NCBI RefSeq assembly: GCF_000012805.1
Contig: NC_007484.1
Location: 840,001 to 872,000 of the forward strand
DNA: 32,000 nt
From: Nitrosococcus oceani ATCC 19707
GTDB lineage: Bacteria > Pseudomonadota > Gammaproteobacteria > Nitrosococcales > Nitrosococcaceae
Reading direction: 5' to 3'
Positions 3,439 to 19,436 of the stretch are shown in pieces. Position 1 is the stretch's first letter; each line of letters opens with the position of its first letter. Both the position numbers and the translations under genes were made by a program. The notes under the pieces were generated by a model. It had not been told where the DNA came from and searched no databases. It worked only from the letters and a program-made list of their open reading frames with translations.

Positions 3439-4917
3439 GTGGATATGGTCGAATCATGTACTTTTGTAATTTTCGGTGCTACCGGCAACCTGAGTCGCAA
3501 TAAGCTACTGCCCGCCCTCTATCATTTGGAGTTGGCACAACGGCTGCCTGATAAAATGGCGATTGTGGGCCTTGGGCGCCGGGACTGGAATAATGAGCAT
3601 TGGCGCCAGTGGGTGGCTGAGGATATCGGGCCCAAGGCAAGAGGGGGTCTGGATGAAGCGATTTTAGCCCGTTTCCAGCAGCGGTTGCATTATTTTCAGG
3701 GAGATTTTGGAGAGTCGGAAACCTACCAGCGTCTTAAAGACTACCTAGAGAAGGAAACTCAGAATTTCCCCTCCAATAGCGTGTTCTATCTGTCTATTCG
3801 TCCGGCAGAGTTTAGCGTGGTGTCGGATAATCTCGGGGCGGTGGGCCTCAATTCGGAGCAAGAGGGGTGGCGGCGGTTAGTGGTGGAAAAGCCCTTTGGC
3901 TACGATCTAGAAAGCGCCGAGAGGCTAGAATCCCGTTTGCACCGGTATTTTGCGGAGTCCCAAATTTTCCGTATCGACCATTATTTGGGTAAGGGGACAG
4001 TGCAAAATGTGTTTGTATTCCGCTTTGCTAATTTGATGCTCGAACCCCTATGGAATCGTAATTATATTGATCATATTCAAATTACCCATGCGGAAACCCG
4101 GGGGCTGGAGGGACGGGCAGGATATTATGAGGGGACCGGCGCCCTGCGGGATATGATCCAAAGCCATCTGCTGCAAATGCTTGCCCTCGTGGCCATGGAA
4201 CCTCCCCCTAACATGGACCCGGAGTCCCTGCGGGATGAGAAAGTCAAGGTATTGAAATCAATCCGCCCCATTCCGGCCCGTGCTGTTAACGCCCATGCTT
4301 TTCGTGCCCAATACGCCTCCGGCATTATCAACGATAAAAAAGTGCCTGGCTATTTGACCGAGGAAGGAGTCGCCGAAGACAGTACGACGGCAACGTATGT
4401 GGCCCTTAAGCTTTATATTGATAACTGGCGCTGGCGTCATATACCCTTCTATTTGCGCACGGGTAAACGGATGGCCACGACCACCTCTCAAATTTCGATC
4501 CGCTTCAAGCGGGTTCCCCAGCAGTTATTTCGGCACACTCCCATCCAGCGTATCGAGCCTAATTGGCTTTTATTGGGCATTCAGCCCGATGAATGCATGC
4601 GGATTGAGCTGCATGTCAAAAAACCGGGGCTGGAAATGGATACGGAGATCACCACCCTGGATGCTGCTTTTTGCCGGCAGGGAGAGATGAAATTGGATGC
4701 CTATGAAGCCTTGCTTTTGGATGTTGTGGAGGGAGATAATTCCCTATTTTTGCGCTATGATGAAGTGCGCTGGGCCTGGCGGGTGGTGGACCCCATACTT
4801 AAAGTATGGGCCAGTGAGCGGGATTTTATCCATAGCTATGGAGCCGGTAGTTGGGGGCCTCCGGAAACCTCCCGTCTATTTGACCGTGAGGATCAGCATT
4901 GGCGTAATACTCTTTAA
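3439..4917 (+). CDS. zwf: glucose-6-phosphate 1-dehydrogenase
   Basis: 492-aa ORF with a GTG start (in-frame ATG two codons later). Motifs: FGATGNL NADP-binding site, EKPFG, and the RIDHYLGK active-site motif. Confidence 0.95.
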
Positions 4918-4929
4918 AAATAAAGGCCT

Positions 4930-6006
4930 ATGATTCAACAACCGCTTTTGATTACCGGGGGCGCCGGTTTTATTGGTTCTACCGTGGTGCGGCATTTTCT
5001 TGCAGCCACGGAGCGGGGGGTGATTAATGTGGATAAACTCACCTATGCCGGTAATCCGGAGTCCCTGGAAGACCTTGCTTCTCACCCTCGCTATGAATTT
5101 GTCCATGCCAATATCTGCCAGCGGGAGGCTATGACGCAAATATTTGCCCGCTACCAGCCGGGTGCGGTGCTGCACCTGGCTGCCGAATCCCATGTGGATC
5201 GCTCCATTGATAACCCGGCAGCTTTTATCGACACCAATGTGACCGGGACTTATATTTTGCTAGAAGCAGCCTTGGACTATTGGCGGAAGCTTGATAAAAG
5301 CGCTCAAGCCCGGTTTCGTTTTCACCACATCTCCACCGATGAAGTGTTTGGTTCTTTGGGCGCAACGGGGCTGTTCCGGGAAGACTCTCCCTATCAGCCC
5401 AATTCCCCCTACGCCGCGAGCAAGGCCGCCTCGGATCACCTTGTACGGGCCTGGTATCATACTTATGGATTGCCGGTTTTGATTACTAATTGCTCCAATA
5501 ATTACGGTCCCCGCCAATTTCCGGAAAAACTTATCCCCCTGATGGTTCTCAATGGCATGGAGGGCAAATCCCTGCCGGTGTATGGCGCTGGCGATAATGT
5601 GCGGGATTGGTTGTATGTGGAAGACCATGTGCGGGCGCTGGAAACCGTCCTTAACAAGGGACAGCCGGGAGAAACCTATAATATTGGCGGGTACAATGAA
5701 AAAACCAACGTCGAGGTAGTAGAACTCATTTGCCAATTTCTTGATGAACTGCTTCCCCAATCCCCTCACCGGCCTCACCGTTCCCTCATTACCTTTGTAG
5801 CGGATCGGCCCGGCCATGACCAGCGATATGCCATCGATGCGGGAAAAATAGCCTGTGAACTGGATTGGCGGCCCCGGGAAACCTTCGAGACTGGGTTGCG
5901 CAAGACGGTGCAATGGTATCTGGATAATCAGAATTGGTGCCGGCGGGTATTGGATGGCAGTTATCGCCGGGAGCGTTTAGGCATCAAGGGTCAAGCCCAT
6001 GCGTAA
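4930..6006 (+). CDS. rfbB: dTDP-glucose 4,6-dehydratase
   Basis: 358 aa. Motifs: GGAGFIGS Rossmann fold and YAASKAASD (YxxxK). Heads an rfbB-A-C-D block. Confidence 0.95.
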
Positions 6007-6877
6007 GGGAATTATTCTTGCCGGGGGATCGGGAACCCGGCTGTATCCTGTTACCCAGCCGGTTTGCAAGCAGCTTCTGCCCGTTTACGATAAACCCATG
6101 CTCTACTACCCCCTCTCGGCCTTGATGCTGGCCGGTATCCGGGAGATTTTGGTCATTTCCACCCCTCAGGATTTGCCCCGTATCGAGCAGTTATTGGGGG
6201 AGGGTTCCCAGTGGGGGTTGAGCTTTTCTTACCGGGTGCAGTCCCGGCCCGAGGGCATCGCCCAGGCTTTTATCCTTGGCAAGGACTTCATTGGGGGGGA
6301 GCCCTGTGCTTTGATATTGGGGGATAATATCTTCCATGGCGATGATCTTTCTGTCCTATTGCAGGAGGCCGCTCAGCGGGATTTGGGCGCTACAGTATTT
6401 GCTTATCCGGTCCATGATCCAGAGCGTTACGGCGTGGTGGAATTTGAAGATGGCCGCAAGGTTTTGAGCATCGAGGAGAAACCGGCAGTGCCTAAATCCC
6501 GTTATGCGGTAACAGGGCTGTATTTTTATAATGCCCAAGTGGTGGAAATAGCTGAATCTCTGTCCCCCTCTGCACGGGGCGAGTTGGAGATTACCGATAT
6601 CAACCGGTATTACTTGAAGCAAGGACAGTTGTTTGTGGAAGTCATGAGCCGAGGCATGGCGTGGCTGGATACCGGCACCCACGATTCCCTGTTGGACGCC
6701 GCCTTGTTCATTCACACTATCGAAAAACGGCAAGGTCTGAAAATTGCCTGTCCCGAGGAAATTGCCTACCGGATGGGGTATATCGGCGCTGAAGAGCTAG
6801 TGCGTTTAGCTGGGCCGCTGCAAAAAAGCGGTTATGGCGACTATTTGCTAAGCTTGTTACAGGATAAAGTGTATTAA
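5999..6877 (+). CDS. rfbA: glucose-1-phosphate thymidylyltransferase
   Basis: 292 aa. Opens [17 protein letters not shown] (GxGTRL nucleotidyltransferase motif). Overlaps the rfbB stop by 8 nt. Confidence 0.95.
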
Positions 6878-6895
6878 AAAGAGTCCCTGGTTTCC

Positions 6896-7441
6896 ATGAA
6901 AGCAACCTCAACTTCGCTCCCTGGCGTTTTGTTGATCGAACCCCGCGTCTTTGGCGATGAGCGAGGGTTTTTCTTTGAAAGCTATAATCGGGCCGCCTTT
7001 GCGGCGGCAACCGATACCCAGGTCGAGTTTGTGCAGGATAACCATTCTCGCTCGCTCCAGCATGTTCTACGGGGCCTGCACTACCAAATTTGCCAACCCC
7101 AGGGGAAGTTGGTTCGGGTGGTTGCCGGTGAAGTTTTTGACGTAGCCGTTGATCTGCGGCGCCGTTCTCCTGGCTTTGGCCGTTGGGTAGGTTACCGCCT
7201 CTCGGCGGAAAACAGGCACCAGCTTTGGATACCGGGAGGATTTGCCCACGGTTTTTTGGTTTTAAGCGAGTATGCGGAATTTTTGTATAAAACCACCGCC
7301 TACTACGCGCCGGAGTACGAGCGCTGCATTCGCTGGGATGATTCCGATCTGGCCATTGACTGGCCCTTGGATGGAAGGCCGCTCATTTCCGCCAAGGATC
7401 AAGCCGGTTGTGCTTTTAACGAGGCGGAGCTGTTTCCGTGA
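6896..7441 (+). CDS. rfbC: dTDP-4-dehydrorhamnose 3,5-epimerase
   Basis: 181 aa. FGDERGFFFE and RGLHYQ cupin motifs typical of RmlC. Confidence 0.93.
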   Translation: MKATSTSLPGVLLIEPRVFGDERGFFFESYNRAAFAAATDTQVEFVQDNHSRSLQHVLRGLHYQICQPQGKLVRVVAGEVFDVAVDLRRRSPGFGRWVGYRLSAENRHQLWIPGGFAHGFLVLSEYAEFLYKTTAYYAPEYERCIRWDDSDLAIDWPLDGRPLISAKDQAGCAFNEAELFP

Positions 7442-8325
7442 ACAGCACTCAGAGACGGATACTTTTAATAGGCGCCACAGGTCAGGTGGGTTGGGAGTTA
7501 CAGCGGACCCTAGCGCCCTTGGGGGAAGTATTTGCTCCGGGGCGGGAGCGCCTGGATCTGGCCCAATTGGACAGTATTCGCCCTTGCCTTGCCGAGACCC
7601 AGCCGGCCTTGATCGTCAATGCCGCAGCTTATACCGCCGTGGATAAGGCAGAGGAGGAACCGGAGCAAGCGTTGGCCATTAATGGCAAGGCTCCTGGCGT
7701 ATTGGCGGAAACGGCCCGCCAGCAGGGCGCGGCGTTTATTCATTATTCTACCGACTATGTGTTTGATGGAAAAAAGGCCGCCCCCTATCGCGAGAGTGAT
7801 ACTCCCCGGCCGTTGAATGTTTACGGCCAAACCAAGCTGACGGGAGAGCAAGCTATTGTCGCCGTGGGTGGAGCCTATTTAATTTTGCGCACCAGTTGGG
7901 TCTATGGGCTGAGGGGACATAATTTTTTATTGACCATGCAGCGTTTGGCCCGGGAAAGGGAAGTGCTTAGGGTGGTGGATGATCAATGGGGCGCACCTAC
8001 CTGGAGCCGCTTGATTGCGGAAGGAACGGCGCAAATCATTGCCCAGTCCTGGGGTCATAGGCAGAACTATATTCCCCTACAGACAGGTATTTACCACCTA
8101 AGCTGTGGGGAAAAGACGACTTGGCATGGTTTTGCGCAGACTATTTTGACGCGCCTAGCGCAAGGGGCGGGATCGGTAGCGAAGCTAAAAGCTATTTCTG
8201 CCGCGGATTATCCGACCGCCGCCCGGCGTCCCGCCTTCTCCTGTTTGGACAATACGCTGGCACGGGATACCTTTGGCATTCAACTGCCAAGCTGGCGGAC
8301 GGCATTGGAATTGGCGCTTTCATAG
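7438..8325 (+). CDS. rfbD: dTDP-4-dehydrorhamnose reductase
   Basis: 295 aa. ILLIGATGQVG Rossmann fold and STDYVFDG motif. 4-nt overlap with rfbC. Confidence 0.93.
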   Translation: MNSTQRRILLIGATGQVGWELQRTLAPLGEVFAPGRERLDLAQLDSIRPCLAETQPALIVNAAAYTAVDKAEEEPEQALAINGKAPGVLAETARQQGAAFIHYSTDYVFDGKKAAPYRESDTPRPLNVYGQTKLTGEQAIVAVGGAYLILRTSWVYGLRGHNFLLTMQRLAREREVLRVVDDQWGAPTWSRLIAEGTAQIIAQSWGHRQNYIPLQTGIYHLSCGEKTTWHGFAQTILTRLAQGAGSVAKLKAISAADYPTAARRPAFSCLDNTLARDTFGIQLPSWRTALELALS

Positions 8326-8334
8326 GATTGTTTA

Positions 8335-10347
8335 CTAAGCGCGCCAGCCCAATTCCTGGGCCCGCTGCCGGGCCAGCGCCGGGATATCAGTGGCGATAAA
8401 ATGCTGATGCAGGATCTGTACCCCCAGGAGATGGTTGATGACCGCATCTAGCCGGACTTTAGTGGAGAGGGGGGTCTGTTTGGCTTCGTGCAAGGCAAAC
8501 AGATCCTTAACCCCTTGCGCGTCTAGTAATCCGGTATGGGCAATGGCCTCCGCGGTTAGGTATTTTTGGGCTAATTGGTTCATGGCCGCCCATTTTTTAG
8601 GATCGGTATGGGCAGGTGGCGCCATGAAGGCAAATTTTTCCCGCTCATAAAGCACCTTGGGCAAGAGTCCCCGCATGGCCTCCCGTAGCACATACTTCTC
8701 CTTTTGCCCCTTGATCCGCATGGCGGGGGGTAATCCCGTGGCGAACTCGGCTAGGTGATGGTCCAGAAAGGGGGGGCGGGCTTCCATGGAGTTGGCCATA
8801 TCCACCCGGTCTCCTCCCCAGGTCAAGATTTGCCCTTCCAGCATCGTTTTGATCCAGATATATTGGGCCTTATCCAAGGGGTGTCGATTAACCAGCATAT
8901 CCGCATCCAAATGCTCGGCAATGGCTTGGCCTGGATCATAGCTTTTAACTTGCTCACGGAGGGGGGCGCTCAGCAAGGCGGGGACATGTTCAGCCGCGTG
9001 GAGCCAAGGTTGCAGGCAACTCGGCGTGAAACCTATCAGGGCCTCTAGGGCGGTATTATGGGTCTCGTTCTCGGCTAGCATGGCTCCCCGGAAAAGCTGG
9101 TTGCTCTCGGCCAAACCCCGTTCCCACTGGACACGTTCTTGGGCAGAGAGAGTCTCCAGCCCATGGAGAATCATATCCCGGCGGAAGGAGGGATAGCCCC
9201 CAAATAATTCATCCGAGCCCTCCCCGGTCACCACGACTTTGTATTGGGTTTGGTGAACGTGACGGCTCATGAGCAGTTTAGCGACACCGAGAGTGTTGTA
9301 GATGGTTCGTTCCGTGTGCCAGAGGGTTTCGGCGAAGTGGTCATAGAGATGATCAGCCCTAAGATGGATGATATCTTGATCAGCCCCTGTGGCTCGCGCC
9401 ATTTCCTGGGCGATGGGGGTCTCATCGTAGTCCACATCATCAAAGCCGATAGTAAAGGCTTTGACCGGCGCTTGTTGGATAGCGGCCGAGAGGCCCAGGG
9501 CGATGCAGGAGTCGATGCCGCCAGAGAGATAACAGCCTACCGGGACATCGGCTTCTAGTCGGAGTTGCACTGCTTCGGTAAGCTGAGTCCGGACTCCTTC
9601 AATATGGTGCTCTTCAGGGAGGGAGTCGGTGCGTTCCGAGAGCCGGGGAAAATCCAAATCCCAGTATTTCTCTTCCCGGATCTGGAAATTACCCTGCTTG
9701 CGTTCCACAATGACCACATGCCCTGGTTTGACCTGCTGAATGCCCTCGAAGGCGGTGCTGCCTGGCACCATGGTTTGCATAAGCTGGTGAAACAGGCCCT
9801 GGGGGCTGAAGCGGCGTGGCACTTCGGGGTGGGCAAACAGGGCTTTTATTTCGGAACCAAATACCAAGGTGCCATTGACCTGGGTCCAGTAGAGGGGTTT
9901 GATGCCGAAGCGGTCCCGGATCAGCATTAATCGGTCCCTTTCCTGATCGTAGAGAGCAAAGGCAAACTCTCCCCGCAAGTGGGGCAACATCCCTCGCAGC
10001 CCCAGCCGGGGGTAGAGATGGAGTACTAACTCTGAGTCGCTTTTGGTGCGAAAACGGGCGCCGCGGGAGGTGAAATCGGCCCGCAGCCGCTTATAGTCAT
10101 AAAATTCCCCATTAGTGGTAAGCAGCAACCGGCCATCTTCGGAGGTAAAAGGCTGCCGGCCCCGGTTTGCTTCCAGATCGATAATGGAGAGGCGGGCGTG
10201 GCTGAAGCCGATCCCTTGATTGTCGATGAGTTGATAACCGAAGCCATCAGGACCACGATGGTGTTGAATGGCGGCCATGGCCACGAGCGTTTGGGGGTCG
10301 ATAGGGTGGTTAGGGTTTAGGTGGATGTAGCCAGCAATGCCACACAT
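8335..10347 (-). CDS. asparagine synthase B-like glutamine-dependent amidotransferase (long form, 670 aa); substrate unknown
   Basis: The N-terminal MCGIAGY gives the Ntn Cys2 glutaminase nucleophile. CYLSGGIDS is the PP-loop ATP-pyrophosphatase motif, so both half-reactions look intact. It is the last gene of the minus-strand operon, and its stop lies only 9 nt from the convergent rfbD stop. Confidence 0.85.
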   Translation of the reverse strand: MCGIAGYIHLNPNHPIDPQTLVAMAAIQHHRGPDGFGYQLIDNQGIGFSHARLSIIDLEANRGRQPFTSEDGRLLLTTNGEFYDYKRLRADFTSRGARFRTKSDSELVLHLYPRLGLRGMLPHLRGEFAFALYDQERDRLMLIRDRFGIKPLYWTQVNGTLVFGSEIKALFAHPEVPRRFSPQGLFHQLMQTMVPGSTAFEGIQQVKPGHVVIVERKQGNFQIREEKYWDLDFPRLSERTDSLPEEHHIEGVRTQLTEAVQLRLEADVPVGCYLSGGIDSCIALGLSAAIQQAPVKAFTIGFDDVDYDETPIAQEMARATGADQDIIHLRADHLYDHFAETLWHTERTIYNTLGVAKLLMSRHVHQTQYKVVVTGEGSDELFGGYPSFRRDMILHGLETLSAQERVQWERGLAESNQLFRGAMLAENETHNTALEALIGFTPSCLQPWLHAAEHVPALLSAPLREQVKSYDPGQAIAEHLDADMLVNRHPLDKAQYIWIKTMLEGQILTWGGDRVDMANSMEARPPFLDHHLAEFATGLPPAMRIKGQKEKYVLREAMRGLLPKVLYEREKFAFMAPPAHTDPKKWAAMNQLAQKYLTAEAIAHTGLLDAQGVKDLFALHEAKQTPLSTKVRLDAVINHLLGVQILHQHFIATDIPALARQRAQELGWRA

Positions 10348-10482
10348 AAATTCATTCCTTTTGTGGGTTAATAATCAGCCGTAAGGAGGTGGGAAGCGGT
10401 GATTCCCAAGTAGGGAGTTTTGAGTGTTACTGTTGGATCAGTCAATAATTTGGGAGAGATCATTCTCCGGGATTGAAAGAGA

Positions 10483-11565
10483 TTAGCTTTGCATGGGGGT
10501 ATCCATTACTTGATCGATTCGTTGAACAAGGGTCGTGAGCAGGGCCATGCGCATAAAGACCGCGCCCCGAGCCTGGGCAAAGTACCAGTTATGCTCTGTG
10601 TTATCCAAATCGGTGGCGAGTTCTTTTCCCCGGGCTAAAGGATGGAGAATAATTGCCCCTGGTTTGAAGGGAGAGGACCGGCAAAGTCTCAAGTCTTCCC
10701 CAATTTTTTCGAAGCTATCCCCCCGCCAAGCGATGGAATTAATATATACCACGTCCAGGGCGGGAAGTTCAGGATTGAGTTGGCGAGCCGTTCGAAGGGT
10801 AAGGCCGGAAAGGGCTAATTCTTCTCGTTGCTCTTTTGCAAATACTTCTTCTTGCTGGCAGATAACGACTACCTCTTTTATTGCCGGTGCAAATAGGGCT
10901 AGGAACAACAGTAGACTGCGCACCGTGCGCATGTAGCGGGGCGCGCCCACAACGCCTATTCGTATTTGGGCCGAGGCAGAAACCTTAGACGCCATAAGCT
11001 GCGGTCGCCATTTGAACAGCGTATACAGGTCGGCTAAGGCTTGAGTGGGATGCTCATCGATACCGTTACCGGCATTGATGATAGGAATGCGCAAGGACTC
11101 CAGCATCTGGTAGACGGCCTCTTCGCTGCTATCCCGCAATACGACCAAGTCTCCGTAATTATTGAACATTTCGGCTACATCGGCCAAGGTTTCGCCCTTA
11201 GCGATGCCGGTGGTAGCCGGATCGGTGATGGGCATCACATCGCCTCCCAGTCGATGCCAGGCACTTTCGAATGACAGGCGGGTCCGGGTGCTAGGCTCAT
11301 AGAAGGCATTGATGAGGATTTTCCCGGCTAGGGGGAGCTGTAACCAGGTAGGGGTGGTTTCATAAAGGGCAGCCAAGCGGCTCAGTTGAATGATCTTATC
11401 CCGGTCGAATTGCCGGGCGCTAAGCACGGGGCGGTTAGCCAACCCCACTAACGGAGCGGGATCTTCCAGCACTTGCTCCATTAAAGCCAAGGGCCGTTCA
11501 ATCCCCGCTGTATCATCCTTCGGTTGTAAGGGTTTTCTTAATAAGGGATCAAATTTTTTCACCAT
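10483..11565 (-). CDS. aspartate/ornithine carbamoyltransferase-fold protein, divergent PyrB-like paralog
   Basis: Present: STRTR carbamoyl-phosphate motif (YEPSTRTRLSFE), KGETLADV, HPTQ (DEHPTQALADL) and HPLARG. The canonical PyrB aspartate-site TRVQKER segment is replaced by NSIAWRGD. The track start is a TTG at 11583. I prefer the ATG at 11565 because it overlaps the stop of the upstream micro-ORF (ATGGTGA). Confidence 0.8.
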   Translation of the reverse strand: MVKKFDPLLRKPLQPKDDTAGIERPLALMEQVLEDPAPLVGLANRPVLSARQFDRDKIIQLSRLAALYETTPTWLQLPLAGKILINAFYEPSTRTRLSFESAWHRLGGDVMPITDPATTGIAKGETLADVAEMFNNYGDLVVLRDSSEEAVYQMLESLRIPIINAGNGIDEHPTQALADLYTLFKWRPQLMASKVSASAQIRIGVVGAPRYMRTVRSLLLFLALFAPAIKEVVVICQQEEVFAKEQREELALSGLTLRTARQLNPELPALDVVYINSIAWRGDSFEKIGEDLRLCRSSPFKPGAIILHPLARGKELATDLDNTEHNWYFAQARGAVFMRMALLTTLVQRIDQVMDTPMQS

Positions 11566-11681
11566 AACCGTCCCTTCAGCCAATCACGAAGTAGTAATAG
11601 CAGTAAAATAAAAGGCGCGGTGGTAGTAATGATCAAGGCCACCGTCACTAATCGGGTCAACCATTCAGCCGATATCAGCAT
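11559..11681 (-). CDS. 40-aa single-pass membrane micro-protein (below the ORF-track length cutoff)
   Basis: Hand translation gives MLISAEWLTRLVTVALIITTTAPFILLLLLLRDWLKGRLW*. Its ATG overlaps the symporter stop (ATGCTGA, 11675-11681). Its TGA overlaps the carbamoyltransferase ATG (ATGGTGA, 11559-11565). It has one strongly hydrophobic helix followed by a basic tail. Confidence 0.5.
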   Translation of the reverse strand: MLISAEWLTRLVTVALIITTTAPFILLLLLLRDWLKGRLW

Positions 11682-13123
11682 GGACTTTCCCCTTGTGGAT
11701 GAGATTCATGTAGCTTATCCCAGTTAAAATCCCTGGGCCAAAGCCAGGTGCTAAGCAGCACAATGACCATCGATACGAAGGCACCTATGAGGGCGGCGAC
11801 ATAGAAACCAATCGCAAAATAACCTATGAGACCGGCCATACTGCCTAGACCCATGGCTACCACAGCACCAGTGGGGTTGGTGCGGCGCCAATAAAGTCCC
11901 GCTGCGATGGGCCAGATGGTGCTGGCCACGAAAGCGCCGGTGAAATAGAGTAATTCGGCCAGCGTCGCTAAACGGGGGATGCACAGGAGCCAGGTTAAGA
12001 TCCCAAGACCAATAATCGCGATCACCGTTGCTTTACGAAGTTGCCAAGCCGTGGCATGGGGCCGCCAGTGGCGCCGATAGAGATCTTCCACCACCAGGAT
12101 ACTGGTTGCCGCCAATAAAGAGTCCAGGCTTGATGAGAGGGCTGAGAACACCATAACCAGCACCAGGACCGCGCCAGTAACCCCTAGCAATTCTCCGGCA
12201 ACCATGGGGCCTACCATATCGGCCGCCGGGATATTGAGATCCAGCGCGGGAACCGCCAGGGCAATAAAACCAGCAACGACAGGAATTGGCATCCATAGGA
12301 TACCGGCGGTGAAATAGGCCTTAAATCCTATGCCTTCCCGAAAGGAAAACGCTCGGCTCCACCAAACATTGGAATGGAATACTTCCCCCACTCCAAACAA
12401 CAAGTTGTTGAAAAGAAACATTAAAGCGGCAGGCATGAGGAGGTTAAGCAATTGGGGCCGCTCCTCGGCGACTGAGGCATGGATACGGTCAAAACCGACC
12501 TTATCGATGGCGAGCCAGGCAATAACCACCAGCCCGGATAGAATCAGGAGTGATTGGATAAAGTCGGTACCGATAACGGCGCGGAATCCTCCTAGCAAGG
12601 TATAACCGACACAGATAGTTAGAATAACCGTCATCCCATAATGGTAGGGGATTCCCGTCAGGGCATTGATAAGAATTCCGCCCGCCATTCCCATACTAAC
12701 CAGCCAGCCCAGACCATAGCACAGGGAGATAGCAAGAAAAATCCGCCAGGCCACCTTCCCGTAGCGCAAGCGGATAAAATCGCCACTGGTGTAGCCATTG
12801 GGCATAAGTTTGCGGATCCGCTGGGCAAGGGGAGCGAACATGAGTAGTCCCACCGCCCCTAGAGAGTAACCCAACATGCCCCAGATGCCCATTTGAAAAG
12901 CTAGTTGGGGAGCGGCCATGGTGGTATTGCTAGTGACCCAGGTGGCCATGGCGGTGGCGGTGCCTAGAGCAAGTCCTACCCGGCGCCCGGCAAGCACATA
13001 TTCATCCAGAGCTTTGGCATTGCGCCCCCAAAACCAGCCGAGCCAAATCCAAACCATGCTGAGAATGGCTAGGGTAATCCAACCCAGGCGCGGGTCCAGG
13101 ATAGCGCTATGAACTGAGTTCAC
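11675..13123 (-). CDS. sodium:solute symporter (SSS/SSF) family transporter
   Basis: 482 aa and polytopic (about 12-13 hydrophobic helices), with a PutP/PanF-like layout. The GTG start overlaps the upstream stop (GTGA at 13120-13123). Confidence 0.85.
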   Translation of the reverse strand: MNSVHSAILDPRLGWITLAILSMVWIWLGWFWGRNAKALDEYVLAGRRVGLALGTATAMATWVTSNTTMAAPQLAFQMGIWGMLGYSLGAVGLLMFAPLAQRIRKLMPNGYTSGDFIRLRYGKVAWRIFLAISLCYGLGWLVSMGMAGGILINALTGIPYHYGMTVILTICVGYTLLGGFRAVIGTDFIQSLLILSGLVVIAWLAIDKVGFDRIHASVAEERPQLLNLLMPAALMFLFNNLLFGVGEVFHSNVWWSRAFSFREGIGFKAYFTAGILWMPIPVVAGFIALAVPALDLNIPAADMVGPMVAGELLGVTGAVLVLVMVFSALSSSLDSLLAATSILVVEDLYRRHWRPHATAWQLRKATVIAIIGLGILTWLLCIPRLATLAELLYFTGAFVASTIWPIAAGLYWRRTNPTGAVVAMGLGSMAGLIGYFAIGFYVAALIGAFVSMVIVLLSTWLWPRDFNWDKLHESHPQGESPC

Positions 13124-13851
13124 GCGGCCACTACCTGATTGATTTCCGCAATGGCCTCGTCAGTAGACAAGACTCGGGCATAGCGATCTTTCAGGGCACG
13201 CAGGGTCGCCTTTTGCAGCTCTGGAGTGACGGTCGTGCAAGCATCCTCGATCAGGGTGGTGAAAAAACCTAAATCGCAGGCGTCGCGAATAGCCGTGGAG
13301 ACGCATTCATTGGTATAGACTCCCGCCACAAACAGGCCCGTAATTCCCAGATTGTGCAAGATGTAGGACAAATTAGTGGCATTAAAAACGCCACTGGCGG
13401 TTTTGTTGATGATGATCTCATCTCCCCGGGGGGCGATTGCTGGCAGAAATTCAGCCTCCTTGGAACCAGCGGGGGCATGGAGCCCCAAGCGTTTGTGTTG
13501 CGGGCCGCGATCACGGCCATCTTTGGTCAAGGACTGAATACGGGTATGGATCACTTCCAGGTTATTGGCCCGAAAGGCGGTTTGCAGACGCTGCACGTTG
13601 GGTAGGACGATCCGCTCGAGCTGATCGAAATAATAAAATTCGGGGGTGTCTTTAGAAACCTTCCCCTTGGATAAATGGGAGAAAACCCCATAGCCAGGCG
13701 CGGCATCCAGGTATTGTAAGTCTACCACCAGCAGTGCAGTGTGGCGCTTTTCCAGGGATTCCACCACGGCGGGAATTTCGGTAACGGTTTCCCGGTAGCT
13801 GGCCCGCAGTGGATCAAAACTTTCCTTTAAGGGTGCGTTGGAATGGGTCAT
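13120..13851 (-). CDS. isochorismatase-family cysteine hydrolase (amidase/ureidase type)
   Basis: 243 aa. Asp-Lys-Cys triad context: ALLVVDLQ, IINKTASGVF, GVYTNECVSTAIRDA. Confidence 0.85.
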   Translation of the reverse strand: MTHSNAPLKESFDPLRASYRETVTEIPAVVESLEKRHTALLVVDLQYLDAAPGYGVFSHLSKGKVSKDTPEFYYFDQLERIVLPNVQRLQTAFRANNLEVIHTRIQSLTKDGRDRGPQHKRLGLHAPAGSKEAEFLPAIAPRGDEIIINKTASGVFNATNLSYILHNLGITGLFVAGVYTNECVSTAIRDACDLGFFTTLIEDACTTVTPELQKATLRALKDRYARVLSTDEAIAEINQVVAA

Positions 13852-13869: not shown

Positions 13870-15108
13870 TTAATGGGCTAATTGATAGAGCGTATTCAAG
13901 GCCACGTTTGCGCCCGTTTCAATGTCTTCCCAGGGAGTCCATTCCGCTGGAGAATGGCTGCGCCCTCCTTGGCTAGGAACGAAAATCATGCCTGCCCGGG
14001 TCAGGGTTGCCATGATTTGGGTGTCATGGGCGGCTCCGCTTGGCATTTGCAAAGGCTCTACCCCGAGGCTCCGGGCCGCATTAAAGATGGTCTCCATGAT
14101 GCCAGGATCGCACTTAACCGGTTCAATTTCGCTCAACACTTCAAATTCGAACATGAGCCCGCGGCGGCGGGCGATTGCCGAGAGGGCGAGGCGGAAGGCG
14201 TGGGTCAAATCCTTGAGAATGATTGCCTCGGTATCCCGCACATCCAGAGAAAACTTGACGCTTCCTGGGATTACATTTGCAGCGCCAGGAAAAACCTCTA
14301 CCCGGCCGATAGTGGCCACGCTGCGGGGACCGCCATTTTCTTCCAGAACTCGGGTAATTTCTCCTGCGAATTCGGCCAGACCTTGCAAGGCATCCTGGCG
14401 CATATCCATAGGTGTGGTGCCGGCATGGTTGGCGGTGCCCTTAAGGGTGACTTCCCATTTGAACAGGCCCACGATTCCTTCGACGACTCCCACGCTAACG
14501 CCTTGCCGCTCAAGGATGGGACCTTGTTCAATGTGGAGTTCCAAAAAGGCGATGAGACTTTCTGGTTTGCGCCTTGCTCGCAGGATGTCCGCGGGATTTA
14601 GTCCCTGGGCGGTCATGGCCTGGGAGAGGCTGATTCCGTCCAAGTCGCGGGCATTATGGATGGCTTCCGGGGTGAGGCGGCCGCTGATAGCCTGGGATCC
14701 CAACAGGCCGCCAAAGCGTCCTTCCTCATCGGTAAAGGCAATCGCCTCTACTGCATAGCGTAAAGAGAGGTCGAGTTCTTTGAAGCGGCGCAAACATTCA
14801 AGCCCGACTAATACGCCCAGGGCTCCATCCAGGTGGCCAGCACCAGGGACGGTATCGAGATGGGAGCCGGTCATGACGCTGGGGCGTTCTCCGTTCCAGT
14901 TGAAGCGGGCATGAATGTTGGCGGCGCCGTCTATATAAAGATCCAGCCCTGCCTCATGAATGCGCTCTTGGAACCATTCACGGGCTGCCTGATCGCCTTT
15001 GCTAAAGGCCATGCGATAAAGACCGTAATCGGCCCGCCGGCCGATATGGGCCAGGGTTTCCACATCCGCTTGCAGCCGCTTAAAATTTACCCTAAGAGGC
15101 GTCTTCAT
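13870..15108 (-). CDS. M20-family Zn amidase of the hydantoinase/carbamoylase group (N-carbamoyl-amino-acid or allantoate amidohydrolase-like)
   Basis: 412 aa. Motifs GSHLDTVPGAGHLDGALGV, ELHIEQGPILE and GTANHAGTTPM are typical of AmaB/AllC/HyuC-type enzymes. Confidence 0.88.
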   Translation of the reverse strand: MKTPLRVNFKRLQADVETLAHIGRRADYGLYRMAFSKGDQAAREWFQERIHEAGLDLYIDGAANIHARFNWNGERPSVMTGSHLDTVPGAGHLDGALGVLVGLECLRRFKELDLSLRYAVEAIAFTDEEGRFGGLLGSQAISGRLTPEAIHNARDLDGISLSQAMTAQGLNPADILRARRKPESLIAFLELHIEQGPILERQGVSVGVVEGIVGLFKWEVTLKGTANHAGTTPMDMRQDALQGLAEFAGEITRVLEENGGPRSVATIGRVEVFPGAANVIPGSVKFSLDVRDTEAIILKDLTHAFRLALSAIARRRGLMFEFEVLSEIEPVKCDPGIMETIFNAARSLGVEPLQMPSGAAHDTQIMATLTRAGMIFVPSQGGRSHSPAEWTPWEDIETGANVALNTLYQLAH

Positions 15109-15111
15109 AAT

Positions 15112-15726
15112 TTAGGAGTCCTCTTTTTGGCTTCGCCAGGCCCCGGAAATTATAAGGGCGAGGGTGGCAAAGAGCACCGTGGCGCCCGCGCTGAAGAAAG
15201 CAAAAGCGCGGGCAAGAGAGTGGTGCTGCACGGTCACGACTAGGGGAGAACTCCAAGAGCTTGTTGACTGTCCCTGCTTTAAGGTGCGGACCCGGTAGAA
15301 GTAGTGACCGTTGTTTTGCCCGCTAATCAGCGTTCCTTGGTCCGGCCCCCGGTAAATTGTTGTAGGTTGAGTAAATTCCATGTCATTGGCCTCCTGAAGT
15401 TCGTAGGCTAATGCCGATAAATCGCTTCCCTGCCATTTTAGATGGTAGAATCCTGCGCTTGCTGTAGGGCTATCGGAGACGAGCTCTGGGATGAAAGGAG
15501 GTGGTTTGCCCGCCCAGATGGGTAAGGTTATCAAGAAAAAAGCCATAAGCGCTAAGCTAAGCCTTGCTGTAACGTTGGTTGGAATCCTCATACTAATTAT
15601 TACCGTTCTGGCCCTATTAAATTTTGCCATGCCAGAGGATGCAGCGATAGGTTCAAGGGCTTTCTCGTAATCATCATCTGCGGCGAGTGGCTGTTTTATT
15701 ATAGAGGGCGAGGCGCTAAGTTTCAT
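15112..15726 (-). CDS. FN3-like domain membrane protein (signal peptide or anchor plus C-terminal TM helix)
   Basis: The core FYHLKWQG...YELQEA...IYRGPDQGTLISGQNNGHYFYRVRTL...SSWSSPLVVTV fits a fibronectin type III strand pattern. There is a C-terminal helix FAFFSAGATVLFATLALIISGAW followed by RSQKEDS. The likely true start is Met46 (ATG at 15591, MRIPTNVTARLSLALMAFFLITLPIWA) or Met33 (15630). The stop lies 3 nt before the amidase ATG. Confidence 0.6.
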   Translation of the reverse strand: MKLSASPSIIKQPLAADDDYEKALEPIAASSGMAKFNRARTVIISMRIPTNVTARLSLALMAFFLITLPIWAGKPPPFIPELVSDSPTASAGFYHLKWQGSDLSALAYELQEANDMEFTQPTTIYRGPDQGTLISGQNNGHYFYRVRTLKQGQSTSSWSSPLVVTVQHHSLARAFAFFSAGATVLFATLALIISGAWRSQKEDS

Positions 15727-15839: not shown

Positions 15840-17327
15840 TTGATCAAATCAATGCGGGCTAAAACATACCGACCGGGACGCTTCTATTGGGTACGCCCAA
15901 ACTCTTTTATTACTTTGATTTTGGGTGGATTTTTGCTTGTAGCGGTACCCTTATCCGCTGGCCTTATTTTTGCGGCCGTTCAAATGGAATATTTAGCGCG
16001 CCAAAGCGCGGTAGCTGTTTATAAAAGCGTCCAGGTGACTCAAGGAAGCAGGATCTTGGTACAGCAGCTTATTGCTATGGAACGGGCTGCAAGACAGTTC
16101 CAGGTGCTAGATGATCCCGCGCTGTATCAGGCTTATATGGCTAATCGGCGTAAATTCAGGGATATACTAGAGCAAATGTTAGAATTACCGCTTAGCGAGG
16201 CGCAGCGGCAGGGGTTTGACTCCCTAGCGCGGGAGGAAAGTGCTATTTACGATGTCTTGAGTGTTTATACATTAAACTCTGAGGCTGGCAAACAAGCGGC
16301 TGATCAGTTTTTGGGGTTGGCGCGGCAGGCCCGGGCTTTGCTAGCGGACAGCAACCAATTGGTAGGCGAGGAGGTAGATGCTTTACAAGAGACGGCGCGA
16401 GAGGCTCAGAAATCGCTTTTTTGGCAGGCTCTAGGTCTTATCCCCGCGGCAGGGTTGTTGGCTGTTTTATTTACGTTCTTGATTAGGGGGTATTTTCGCC
16501 AACTTGATAAATCTATCAGGCGCCTTGGTAATGGGGATTTCGATACGCCTATTGAGGTAACTGGTCCACGGGATCTGGAAGTGCTAGGACAACAGCTGGA
16601 TTGGCTACGCTGCCGTTTGGTCGAGCTAGAAGAAACCAAGGTAAAATTTCTCCGGCATGTTTCTCATGAACTTAAAACACCACTGGCAGCCCTGCGTGAA
16701 GGATCGGAATTGCTCTGCGATCAAGTCATTGGTCGTTTGAGCGCGCAGCAGCTGGAAGTAGCCCGGATTTTGCGCAGTAATAGCCTGCGTTTACAGAAAT
16801 TAATTGAAGATATGCTCCGGTTTAATTTGGCTGGTACTAATCAAATCGAGCGTGTCCCCGAAGTAGTGCGGCTGGATCAGTTGATTAAAATTGTATTGAG
16901 TGATCACATCCCGACTAGCCTGTCAAAGCAGGTTAAGTTTCTCGTGGATTTGGATCCGGTAAAAATTTTTGGTGACCAGGAACGTTTGAAAATTATCATT
17001 GATAATCTCATCTCTAACGCTCTTAAATATTCACCACCTGGCAGTTCAGTGGAAATTAAACTAACTCAGGAAGAGGGCCAAGCTTGCCTGGAGGTGCATG
17101 ACTCAGGCTCTGGTGTTGCCCCTGAAGATAGCGCACGGATATTTGATTCCTTTTATCAAGGTAAAGCGCAGCCATCAGGCCCTGTCAAGGGGACTGGCCT
17201 CGGGCTTTCAATTGTGAGGGAAATCGTGTTCGCCCACGGGGGCAATATCGAGCTTGTCAAGGAAAGCCGAAAGGGCGCGCATTTTCGGGTAACCTTGCCC
17301 CTGGCGGTAGAGGAGCGGCGTCCATGA
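15840..17327 (+). CDS. sensor histidine kinase, GlrK/QseE-like topology (2 TM, periplasmic loop, HAMP, HisKA, HATPase)
   Basis: H-box HVSHELKTPLAAL, G1 DSGSGV, G2 GTGLGLSIV. TM helices near residues 22-46 and 195-215. The track start is a TTG at 15840; an ATG at 15852 (MRAKTY...) is equally plausible. Confidence 0.9.
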   Translation: MIKSMRAKTYRPGRFYWVRPNSFITLILGGFLLVAVPLSAGLIFAAVQMEYLARQSAVAVYKSVQVTQGSRILVQQLIAMERAARQFQVLDDPALYQAYMANRRKFRDILEQMLELPLSEAQRQGFDSLAREESAIYDVLSVYTLNSEAGKQAADQFLGLARQARALLADSNQLVGEEVDALQETAREAQKSLFWQALGLIPAAGLLAVLFTFLIRGYFRQLDKSIRRLGNGDFDTPIEVTGPRDLEVLGQQLDWLRCRLVELEETKVKFLRHVSHELKTPLAALREGSELLCDQVIGRLSAQQLEVARILRSNSLRLQKLIEDMLRFNLAGTNQIERVPEVVRLDQLIKIVLSDHIPTSLSKQVKFLVDLDPVKIFGDQERLKIIIDNLISNALKYSPPGSSVEIKLTQEEGQACLEVHDSGSGVAPEDSARIFDSFYQGKAQPSGPVKGTGLGLSIVREIVFAHGGNIELVKESRKGAHFRVTLPLAVEERRP

Positions 17328-18082
17328 GGGCATTGATGGGTTATGGGGCAGTACTAGGGGTAGGCTGGGCTATGCTGGCTCTTTTTTTATTAGGAGGCTG
17401 CACTGGTTTGAAGCCAGGGTCTCCAATTCCGGTTTATGAACTTTCGTCCCCTGCCTATAAGTTGTCTGTTCCATCACCCAATTCCTTAGAGCCTGAACCT
17501 GGAGACTCCGAGCTTTTATTGCAGTACTATCGGGGTTTGCATGCCTTGTCGGAAGCGGAGTTACAGCGGGAATTGGAGCAAGCGTGGCAGACTACTGCCA
17601 AAGAACCCACGGCCTTTGATCGTTTGCAGCTCATTTTGCTTCTCTCCCTGCCCGAAGTACCTTTCCAAGACTTGGAACAAGCCCGGGCTATGCTACGATC
17701 TTTTTTAAAGACTGAGTTGGAGGGTGCCAAAGAATATGAAGGAGCCAAAGGGCTTTATGATTTAGCCCTTTTTCTGCAAGGTTTTCTTATGGAAGAAGCC
17801 CAGCAGAAACGGCGTTACCGCTTGCTTCAAGAGCAACTTGAACAAAAGCAGGAGCAGGTGAAGCGTTTGAGAAGCGGGTTGAAGTATCTTGATGGTCGCC
17901 GTAAGCAAGAGCAAGAGTGGGCTCATAGCCTAGAGCAGCAATTAGAAAATGAACGAGGAAGGGCGGAAACATTAGAGCAAAAGCTTGAAGCCCTCAAAAC
18001 CATAGAAAAGCGGCTCGAGTACCGGAATCAATCCCAGGAGAATTTGCAGCTGCCTGAGCAAAAGAATGAATCAAATGACTGA
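17324..18082 (+). CDS. lipoprotein with Q/E/K/R-rich coiled-coil C-terminus, in the QseG position
   Basis: Lipobox LFLLGGC. C-terminal heptad-like segment QQKRRYRLLQEQLEQKQEQVKRL...LEQQLENERGRAETLEQKLEALK. ATGA overlap with the kinase stop, and 17-nt overlap with the regulator start. Confidence 0.75.
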   Translation: MRALMGYGAVLGVGWAMLALFLLGGCTGLKPGSPIPVYELSSPAYKLSVPSPNSLEPEPGDSELLLQYYRGLHALSEAELQRELEQAWQTTAKEPTAFDRLQLILLLSLPEVPFQDLEQARAMLRSFLKTELEGAKEYEGAKGLYDLALFLQGFLMEEAQQKRRYRLLQEQLEQKQEQVKRLRSGLKYLDGRRKQEQEWAHSLEQQLENERGRAETLEQKLEALKTIEKRLEYRNQSQENLQLPEQKNESND

Positions 18083-19436
18083 AAATAACAGAGTTTTATT
18101 GGTAGATGATGATTGTGATTTGTTGTCGTTGCTCTCCATTCGTTTAGAGAACGGTGGCTATGAACCTGTTCGAGCGGAAAGCGGAGAAGAAGCGTTAGCC
18201 CAGGTAGAGCTGGCCCGTCCCCAAGCCGTGATCACGGATTTGCGAATGGGAGGCATGGATGGGATGGCGCTAGCGGATTGCATTCACCGGAAAAATCCGG
18301 CATTACCGGTGATTATTCTTACCGCCCATGGTTCCATCCCCGATGCGGTGCAGGCTACTAAAAATGGGGTTTTTGCTTTTCTGACCAAGCCTTATAATAG
18401 CCGGGAGCTATTGAGTCAATTGGAAAAGGCACTTCGTGTTTCAGGTATTTGCCGCGACTTGGAAGAAACCACCCCGGAGAGTTGGCGCGAGGAAATTGTC
18501 ACCCGCAGCCCGTTGATGGAGGATCTGCTCAGCCAGGCCCGACTGGTGGCCGAAAGCGAGGCCAGCATTTGTTTACGGGGCGATAGTGGAACAGGTAAGG
18601 AATTACTGGCTAAAGCTATTCACAAGGCGAGCCCGCGCAGTAAGCAGCCTTTTATTGCCGTTAACTGCGCGGCGATTCCGGAGTTATTGTTGGAATCTGA
18701 GTTATTTGGTCACGCCAAGGGTGCATTTACTGGCGCCACCCGGGATCATCCAGGATTATTTCAGGCTGCCCATGGTGGTACATTATTTTTAGATGAAATT
18801 GGCGATATGCCGGTTGCGCTCCAGGTAAAATTGCTGCGGGCACTACAAGAGCAGCAAGTACGGCCGGTAGGAAACACCTCTACGGTAAGCGTGGATGTGC
18901 GCATTATCTCGGCCACCCACAAAGATCTGGATGCGGAGGTGCGGGATGGAAACTTCCGGGAGGATCTTTATTACCGGCTTAATGTTGTGATCTTGGAAAT
19001 TCCCTCTCTCGCTGAACGGCGGGAAGATATTCTGTTTCTTGCCAATCATTTCTTACACACCTTTCGGCGTGGAAGCAAAAAAAACATTCGAGGATTCTCG
19101 GCTGAGGCAATTGAGCTATTGGTTAGCGCCCCTTGGCCGGGCAATGTCCGTCAGTTATGTAATGTGGTGGAGCAAACCGTGGTTTTGTCAACCACGCCTA
19201 TCATTTCCGCCAAACTGGTAAAAAAAGCGCTGCGTCAGCAGTCAGGCCAATTTCCTTCCTTTGCTGATGCGCGGAGGCAATTCGAGCAGGAATATCTTGC
19301 GGGTCTACTTAAAATTACCGATGGTAATGTGACTCGGGCGTCCCGGTTAGCCCGGCGTAATCGCACCGATTTTTATAAGCTTCTCCAACGTCATACTTTG
19401 GATCCTGCCGATTTTAAGCCTGCCAAATCTCAGTGA
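18066..19436 (+). CDS. sigma-54-dependent response regulator (REC, AAA+, Fis-type HTH), GlrR/QseF/AtoC-like
   Basis: REC domain with VLLVDDD and VITDLRMGGMDG. Walker A GDSGTGKE. GAFTGA sigma-54 contact loop (GHAKGAFTGA). C-terminal HTH NVTRASRLARRNRTDFYKLL. Confidence 0.92.
   Translation: MNQMTENNRVLLVDDDCDLLSLLSIRLENGGYEPVRAESGEEALAQVELARPQAVITDLRMGGMDGMALADCIHRKNPALPVIILTAHGSIPDAVQATKNGVFAFLTKPYNSRELLSQLEKALRVSGICRDLEETTPESWREEIVTRSPLMEDLLSQARLVAESEASICLRGDSGTGKELLAKAIHKASPRSKQPFIAVNCAAIPELLLESELFGHAKGAFTGATRDHPGLFQAAHGGTLFLDEIGDMPVALQVKLLRALQEQQVRPVGNTSTVSVDVRIISATHKDLDAEVRDGNFREDLYYRLNVVILEIPSLAERREDILFLANHFLHTFRRGSKKNIRGFSAEAIELLVSAPWPGNVRQLCNVVEQTVVLSTTPIISAKLVKKALRQQSGQFPSFADARRQFEQEYLAGLLKITDGNVTRASRLARRNRTDFYKLLQRHTLDPADFKPAKSQ

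Follow-up and report, generated by a model that had tools for sequence, protein, structure and literature searches.

A marine pseudo-aspartate transcarbamylase of Nitrosococcus oceani and its possible part in a route to N-carbamoyl-L-glutamine 1-amide

Here we report that a transcarbamylase encoded by Nitrosococcus oceani ATCC 19707 belongs to a separate marine family in which the residues that select aspartate have been replaced, and that it travels with an AsnB-like amidotransferase. It is likely that the two enzymes together produce some N-carbamoyl amino-acid amide. We somewhat favour N-carbamoyl-L-glutamine 1-amide (CGA) as this product, with glutamine being carbamoylated, its alpha-carboxyl amidated by the partner enzyme, and two hydrolases reversing both steps. 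The broadest form of the proposal, in which a new glutamine N-alpha-carbamoyltransferase and the amidotransferase constitute the CGA route and CGA serves widely, in the sea and in soda lakes, as a solute and nitrogen currency, is a serious but tentative possibility. The residue-level observation was already published in 2013; no CGA function for the group was found in the literature searched.

The group was recognized by Barba, Dutoit, Legrain and Labedan in 2013 as a marine “pseudo-ATCase” subgroup (group 3 of their Fig. 5, “pseudo-ATCase 1” of their Table 1; PMC4016543), and their list includes Nitrosococcus oceani ATCC 19707, Rhodopirellula baltica, Synechococcus WH8102, and Kangiella koreensis (PMC4016543). 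Their description agrees with ours in the motifs STRT, HPTQ, HPLA, and SIA (AIA, AIS, or SIA in their Table 1), in paralogy to a true PyrB, and in the surroundings of the gene, with a Na+ symporter on one side, an asparagine-related enzyme on the other, and an N-carbamoyl-amino-acid hydrolase nearby. They assigned the group no function and called the neighbour an asparaginase, whereas here it is an AsnB-like amidotransferase (PMC4016543). The micro-ORF, the amidase, and the link to CGA find no mention in the accessible part of that text (PMC4016543).

The window is the whole stretch of 32,000 nucleotides that was analyzed (NC_007484.1, 840,001 to 872,000), and positions below refer to it. The open reading frame at 10483..11583 on the minus strand is real and comprises 366 aa when counted from its TTG. 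The likely start of the gene is the ATG at 11565, which is preferred on account of a purine-rich Shine-Dalgarno-like stretch just 5' of it, an overlap with the stop of a 40-aa ORF, and a match to a 360-aa database protein. The TTG start and its 50-aa extension were dropped, so that the N-terminal extension over E. coli PyrB, put at about 50 residues in an earlier note made from the sequence, comes to about 38 (family medians 38 and 44). The gene lies in a minus-strand operon with the following features, listed in the order of transcription and with the motifs of the transcarbamylase given after its gene:

15112..15726, minus strand: first gene of the operon, a conserved hypothetical with fibronectin-III/Ig-like features and an uncertain start, found in 48/80 and 26/38 loci of the two subfamilies
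13870..15108, minus strand: M20 N-carbamoyl-amino-acid hydrolase, best PDB match 3n5f (E 3.6e-87), above the TIGR01879 cut-off
13120..13851, minus strand: isochorismatase-family cysteine hydrolase with Asp-Lys-Cys triad motifs, a putative amidase
11675..13123, minus strand: sodium:solute symporter (SSS), whose cyanobacterial counterpart is annotated DUR3/ureP
11559..11681, minus strand: conserved 40-aa hydrophobic micro-ORF overlapping both neighbours, found by tblastn at 63/63 symporter-transcarbamylase junctions
10483..11565, minus strand: marine pseudo-ATCase, 360 aa from the ATG, Pfam OTCace_N and OTCace, a proposed L-glutamine (or glutamate) N-alpha-carbamoyltransferase
11278..11292, minus strand: STRTR carbamoyl-phosphate motif, equivalent to E. 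coli S52-R56 and invariant across the 240 family members
11179-11199, minus strand: KGETLAD motif
11041-11052, minus strand: HPTQ motif
10915..10947, minus strand: GAPRYMRTVRS loop, R167 kept, D162, K164, and G166 changed
10705..10746, minus strand: remodelled 240s loop YINSIAWRGDSFEK, R229 to S, Q231 to A, RxQxER lost
10630..10644, minus strand: HPLAR motif, P268 to A
8335..10347, minus strand: AsnB-like glutamine-dependent amidotransferase, 670 aa, N-terminal Cys glutaminase and ATP-pyrophosphatase motifs intact

The protein has the fold of an aspartate transcarbamylase and lies outside the ATCase, OTCase, PTCase, AOTCase/SOTCase, and YgeW classes. Among solved structures, its nearest relatives are ATCases (best E 1e-43), and an AlphaFold model (pLDDT 86.6, pTM 0.87) superimposes on ATCases with Z scores of 33-35 and an rmsd of 2.1-2.9 over about 300 aligned residues. 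The hallmarks of the transcarbamylase superfamily (S-x-R-T, H-P-x-Q, R105, and the two-domain fold) are all present. With PyrB (EC 2.1.3.2; structures 2rgw, 1ml4, and 1d09), to which it is 33-35% identical, it shares the fold, the carbamoyl-phosphate site, K84, and R167, but it differs in the loss of RxQxER, in HPLA for HPLP (PyrB has HP[LG]P), in changes at D162 and S80, in the extension of about 38 aa, and in a context free of pyrI and pyrC. NCBIfam profiles for ATCase score below their cut-offs (193 bits versus 237 for TIGR00670, and 181 versus 263). Membership among the OTCase, PTCase, AOTCase/SOTCase, and YgeW enzymes fails more widely, with HPLA in place of an HCLP-type motif and 28-95 bits against cut-offs of 288-500 (OTCase 95, PTCase 64, YgeW 29, AOTCase/SOTCase 28). 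OTCases are further marked by a DxxxSMG loop. The likeness to acetyl- or succinyl-ornithine, putrescine, and YgeW-type enzymes that had been drawn from the sequence was misleading, given these scores and an invariant R167.

Residue conservation was tabulated by mapping E. coli PyrB onto 120 close relatives and 120 members of a second subfamily, the latter including planctomycete and myxococcal proteins; 81 more distant matches, mostly canonical PyrB, served as the comparison set. All 240 members retain S52/T53/R54/T55, K84, R105, H134, Q137, and R167. As the earlier note had it, all the carbamoyl-phosphate and fold motifs can be located in the ORF; the carbamoyl-phosphate site is, as judged from sequence, intact. 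The second-substrate site is not: numbered from the ATG, the N. oceani protein has S277 for R229, A279 for Q231, R281 for E233, and G282 for R234, with further changes of D162 to A208, P268 to A311, and S80 to G120. R229 is replaced by S or A in 240/240 members and Q231 by A in 96-98%, whereas each is 90% conserved in the comparison set. In both subfamilies E233 and R234 are lost, S80 becomes G, T228 becomes an invariant N, and P268 becomes A (in 100% and 99% of members, against P in 98% of the comparison set), leaving Y-x-N-[SA]-I-A-[WFL] as the family signature of the 240s loop. The rewriting of Arg229 and Gln231 that had been noticed in one protein is thus family-wide. A mere shift of the two ligands was ruled out, the register being pinned by Y226 and H265-P266 and an R-x-Q occurring near the loop in just 3/240 members. 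The segment read as GAPRYMRTVRS in place of GDLKYGRTVHS is indeed changed, but R167 and, in this protein, T168 are retained in it. The arginine of SIAWRG was rejected as a glutamate-binding residue: its position is V in 88% and I in 11% of its own subfamily, and it is peculiar to the query sequence rather than a specificity residue of the family.

In ATCases, R229 and Q231 anchor the beta-carboxylate of aspartate while R167 and K84 position the alpha-carboxylate (review, PMC4581275), and RxQxER is reported in all known ATCases (PMC4581275). The residue changes, as far as sequence can tell, exclude selection for the aspartate beta-carboxylate and do not name the acceptor. With R167 invariant, the enzyme probably still accepts an alpha-amino acid whose carboxylate is free, adding the carbamoyl group to the alpha-amino nitrogen, but no longer selects aspartate; pocket size would here be argued purely from the residues. 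The idea of a non-aspartate acceptor, already put forward in the earlier note, is well supported by the lost beta-carboxylate ligands, the scores below ATCase cut-offs, the separate pyrB and argF genes, and a clade of its own.

Three transcarbamylases are encoded in the N. oceani genome, one at a pyrR-pyrB-pyrC-like locus, one at argD-argF, and the pseudo-ATCase; the canonical PyrB carries RLQRER and ArgF carries SMG and HCLP motifs. Five other carrier genomes likewise have three transcarbamylases each. Neither pyrI nor any other pyrimidine gene was found among the neighbours of the pseudo-ATCase, in agreement with what had first been seen at this locus. Phylogenetic placement, which had been suggested as a check, put the family in its own clade (SH-aLRT 99); both trees in this work are quick ones with SH-aLRT support only, and with the long branches of the genome's PyrB and ArgF they tell which sequences cluster but not in what order events took place. 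No close family member was found on plasmids, the best relatives there being 30-34% identical. Within the family, a clade of 354-374 aa relatives (SH-aLRT 100; P0129, P0133-P0137, P0139, P0141-P0143, P0145, P0146, P0150, and P0162) has the N-terminal extension, has lost STRT, K84, Q137, and HPLA, and mostly keeps R167; these proteins are probably, to judge from those residues, inactive or repurposed as ligand binders, and the two contigs of this clade that were seen (L087 and L088) lack the operon. On a Logan contig, a divergent member with SLIW and HPLA (P0124) adjoins a 1110-aa HEAT/cNMP-binding protein, not an amidotransferase.

It is the operon context that holds most of the functional information on the pseudo-ATCase. 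Genes are tightly packed, several of them overlapping and others 3 or 18 bp apart, and the AsnB-like gene follows 135 bp past the pseudo-ATCase. Among the 80 genome loci, 72 have the amidotransferase next to the pseudo-ATCase, 68 the symporter, 67 the M20 hydrolase, and 61 the cysteine hydrolase, and contig ends account for several of the absences; the corresponding counts for 38 long loci of the second subfamily are 37, 38, 24, and 16. One locus (L010) has no amidotransferase adjacent. In a sample of 400 evenly drawn gammaproteobacterial genomes, searched with fixed thresholds for both genes, pseudo-ATCase and amidotransferase orthologue occurred together in 24/24 carriers and either of them in 0/376 other genomes. 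Thiorhodospira sibirica (L019, L173) retains both enzymes about 700 kb apart, with neither symporter nor hydrolases beside either of them. Because the glutaminase and ATP-binding motifs of the amidotransferase are kept, a synthetic pair is favoured.

The micro-ORF product is of membrane type with a D-W-x-x-G-x-L-W tail and is a probable small partner of the symporter. The product of the first gene falls in an ESM Atlas cluster named FN3-containing at 0.95 and has no match in Pfam. Scans for an operon promoter and terminator gave results at chance level. The text of a Thioalkalivibrio salt transcriptome study does not mention the operon genes, and they were not located in an N. oceani ammonium expression study or the accessible part of its supplement. 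Divergent from the operon, at 15840-19436 on the plus strand, lie a histidine kinase, a 252-aa ORF without a family match, and a GlrR-like sigma-54 regulator, a layout that no other genome repeated next to the operon, apart from scattered kinase matches. Three other AsnB-like genes are present in the N. oceani genome (2250505, 2267416, and 2822467), and the one compared is 28% identical to the operon enzyme. Seven Thioalkalivibrio loci (L042, L045, L047, L051, L054, L055, and L061) have a glutamine synthetase gene near the operon, and four other loci (L007, L009, L059, and L070) an ammonium transporter gene.

CGA was reportedly isolated in 1991. It is accumulated by Ectothiorhodospira marismortui as a salt-protective solute, and the type strain of that species, DSM 4180 (L034), has MarR, M20, amidase, transcarbamylase, and AsnB genes in one run of open frames. 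Ectothiorhodospira loci keep the enzymes and lack the symporter, and the pseudo-ATCase was found in 41/41 searched genomes of the order to which E. marismortui belongs. A literature search, with subscription journals mostly outside its coverage, returned no genes assigned to CGA. For Thiorhodospira sibirica, a review names CGA as a possible solute in an organism without annotated osmotic genes, and the species is a clean test organism for the CGA question.

In the proposed pathway, the pseudo-ATCase would use carbamoyl phosphate, a chemistry implied by the conserved site, to carbamoylate L-glutamine, or possibly glutamate, on its alpha-amino group, with R167 and K84 gripping the free alpha-carboxylate and the loss of R229 and Q231 ending selection for a beta-carboxylate. 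Its AsnB-like partner would then adenylate the alpha-carboxyl and amidate it with glutamine nitrogen, as AsnO does for NAGGN, to give CGA; this order, carbamoylation first and amidation second, is predicted from the invariance of R167 and is the order of NAGGN synthesis. Turnover may proceed through the cysteine hydrolase, which would strip the amide, and the M20 carbamoylase, which would free the amino acid, CO2, and ammonia, while the Na+ symporter may import or recapture the solute.

Precedent for such a pathway is provided by the NAGGN cluster, where a MarR gene (PA3458) accompanies asnO-ngg and a peptidase (PMC8070244). The two systems share a capped amino group on glutamine, carboxyl amidation by an AsnB-like enzyme, a hydrolase, and often a MarR gene in the cluster, but here the cap is carbamoyl rather than acetyl, there is no dipeptide, and the operon has no Ngg. 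The operon amidotransferase scores 313 bits against the NAGGN model TIGR03104, whose cut-off is 570; the proposed pathway would work like NAGGN and is not a member of it. A second parallel, compared by description, is the picocyanobacterial asnB-pyrB2-pydC cluster (PMC10119275), which has a DUR3 symporter, a small membrane protein, pyrB2, asnB, and an M20 hydrolase in common with the N. oceani operon, and an Ntn-hydrolase where the latter has the isochorismatase-family enzyme.

Several related loci have an osmotic setting. A MarR gene matching EctR, a regulator that (as EctR/CosR) represses solute genes (PMC13342039), was found in 49/164 loci, lying near the operon in every case except one. 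Fourteen of these MarR proteins, from Kangiella, Aliikangiella, and several planctomycete-type metagenome loci, group with the ectC-adjacent EctR of N. oceani, whose gene lies in an ectR-ectC-ask layout (SH-aLRT 100); the members checked score 95-151 bits against it, and one of them scores 41 bits against the best generic MarR of the PDB. A search for ectC (ectoine synthase) gave no match in the Kangiella and Aliikangiella genomes covered, although the same search recovers ectC in N. oceani. The Ectothiorhodospiraceae MarR proteins are more distant from the N. oceani EctR, at 51-66 bits. A gene for a betaine methyltransferase (glycine/sarcosine methyltransferase) lies 15 bp past asnB in L147/L148 and about 500 bp past it in L067, and a sucrose synthase gene is divergent upstream in 11 Ectothiorhodospiraceae loci. 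In L147/L148 a run at 4069-11780 comprises genes for an EctR-type MarR, an FN3-like protein, the symporter, the transcarbamylase, the amidotransferase, the glycine/sarcosine methyltransferase, and a second methyltransferase, and the two hydrolases are divergent from this run. These loci represent a handful of independent events with many close kin, and no EctR or osmolyte gene was found beside the N. oceani copy.

Other observations weigh against the CGA reading. Rhodopirellula baltica SH1 carries the whole operon intact, at a position matching RB13301, yet in 800-MHz NMR of this organism over a range of salinities, glutamate, sucrose, trehalose, and MGG were the only solutes reported (PMC3694870). 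A minor CGA pool could have been missed by NMR, but bulk accumulation of CGA is not universal among carriers. The core operon genes are not among the entries covered in the R. baltica salt-shock lists. For Thioalkalivibrio versutus, it is betaine that is reported as the main solute. No report of CGA beyond E. marismortui was found in the literature covered. The picocyanobacterial cluster is enriched in warm waters poor in N and P (PMC10119275), and since CGA carries four nitrogen atoms, storage or scavenging would explain this enrichment more readily than the bulk synthesis of an osmolyte.

The alternative that survives best, although we still consider it unlikely, keeps the same chemistry with another product or purpose: an N-carbamoyl amide built on a different alpha-amino acid, such as asparagine, alanine, or glycine, or CGA serving mainly as a small soluble nitrogen store, which cells would fill in times of nitrogen plenty and draw down through the two hydrolases. 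It would account for the N-depleted Synechococcus niches, the lack of bulk CGA in R. baltica, and glnA or amtB near some loci, and the residue changes leave the acceptor unnamed. On the other side stand the operon in a known CGA producer, the occurrence of the enzyme throughout that producer's order, the EctR-type, betaine, and sucrose neighbours, and the retention of the pseudo-ATCase in all four of the four Nitrosococcus genomes, whose owners live on ammonium.

A catabolic role, with the symporter importing an environmental ureido compound and the transcarbamylase running in reverse (phosphorolysis), in the manner of the ureidoglycine and putrescine enzymes, to recover carbamoyl phosphate and nitrogen, is distinctly improbable. 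The symporter is more constant than the hydrolases in the second subfamily (38/38 versus 24 and 16), its cyanobacterial counterpart is annotated as a urea-type transporter, and a sister pseudo-ATCase group is catabolic (PMC4016543). The ureidoglycine carbamoyltransferase Rxyl_2847 (PMC4016543) is also derived from PyrB and also lacks RxQ, but it has an H[ST]LP motif and sits in a purine-catabolic context with carbamate kinase and allantoinase. No carbamate kinase, the mark of a UGTCase-type cluster, was found among the recurrent neighbours of the pseudo-ATCase operon or in five of six carrier genomes (N. oceani, where the best candidate scored 26 bits against a cut-off of 358, and four of five others), which disfavours an energy-yielding phosphorolysis. 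Moreover, the enzyme most tightly paired with the transcarbamylase is an amidotransferase that depends on ATP and has its synthetase motifs intact, an M20 carbamoylase beside a catabolic transcarbamylase would be a duplication, and Ectothiorhodospira loci keep the enzymes even where the symporter is missing. A second aspartate transcarbamylase or alternative pyrimidine route, as in the database annotation and as proposed by Dore et al. for the picocyanobacterial cluster (PMC10119275), is very improbable: the closest sequences and structures are indeed ATCases, but RxQxER is absent family-wide, all ATCase cut-offs are missed, a canonical pyrB exists elsewhere in the genome and the five other carriers have three transcarbamylases each, and there is no dihydroorotase nearby.

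A synthetic route to CGA, if confirmed, would close two gaps at once: the marine pseudo-ATCases, singled out in 2013, would gain a function, and so would a long-orphan metabolite gain its genes, a proposal that two genes suffice to test. It would add a new acceptor to the transcarbamylase family and correct a common PyrB mis-annotation, affecting about 6% of the sampled Gammaproteobacteria and, in the order of E. marismortui, 41/41 genomes searched. It would also indicate an unmeasured nitrogen-rich metabolite in the sea: ammonia and sulfur oxidisers, planctomycetes, and picocyanobacteria would synthesize, take up, and break down CGA, which would then no longer be the curiosity of one phototroph.
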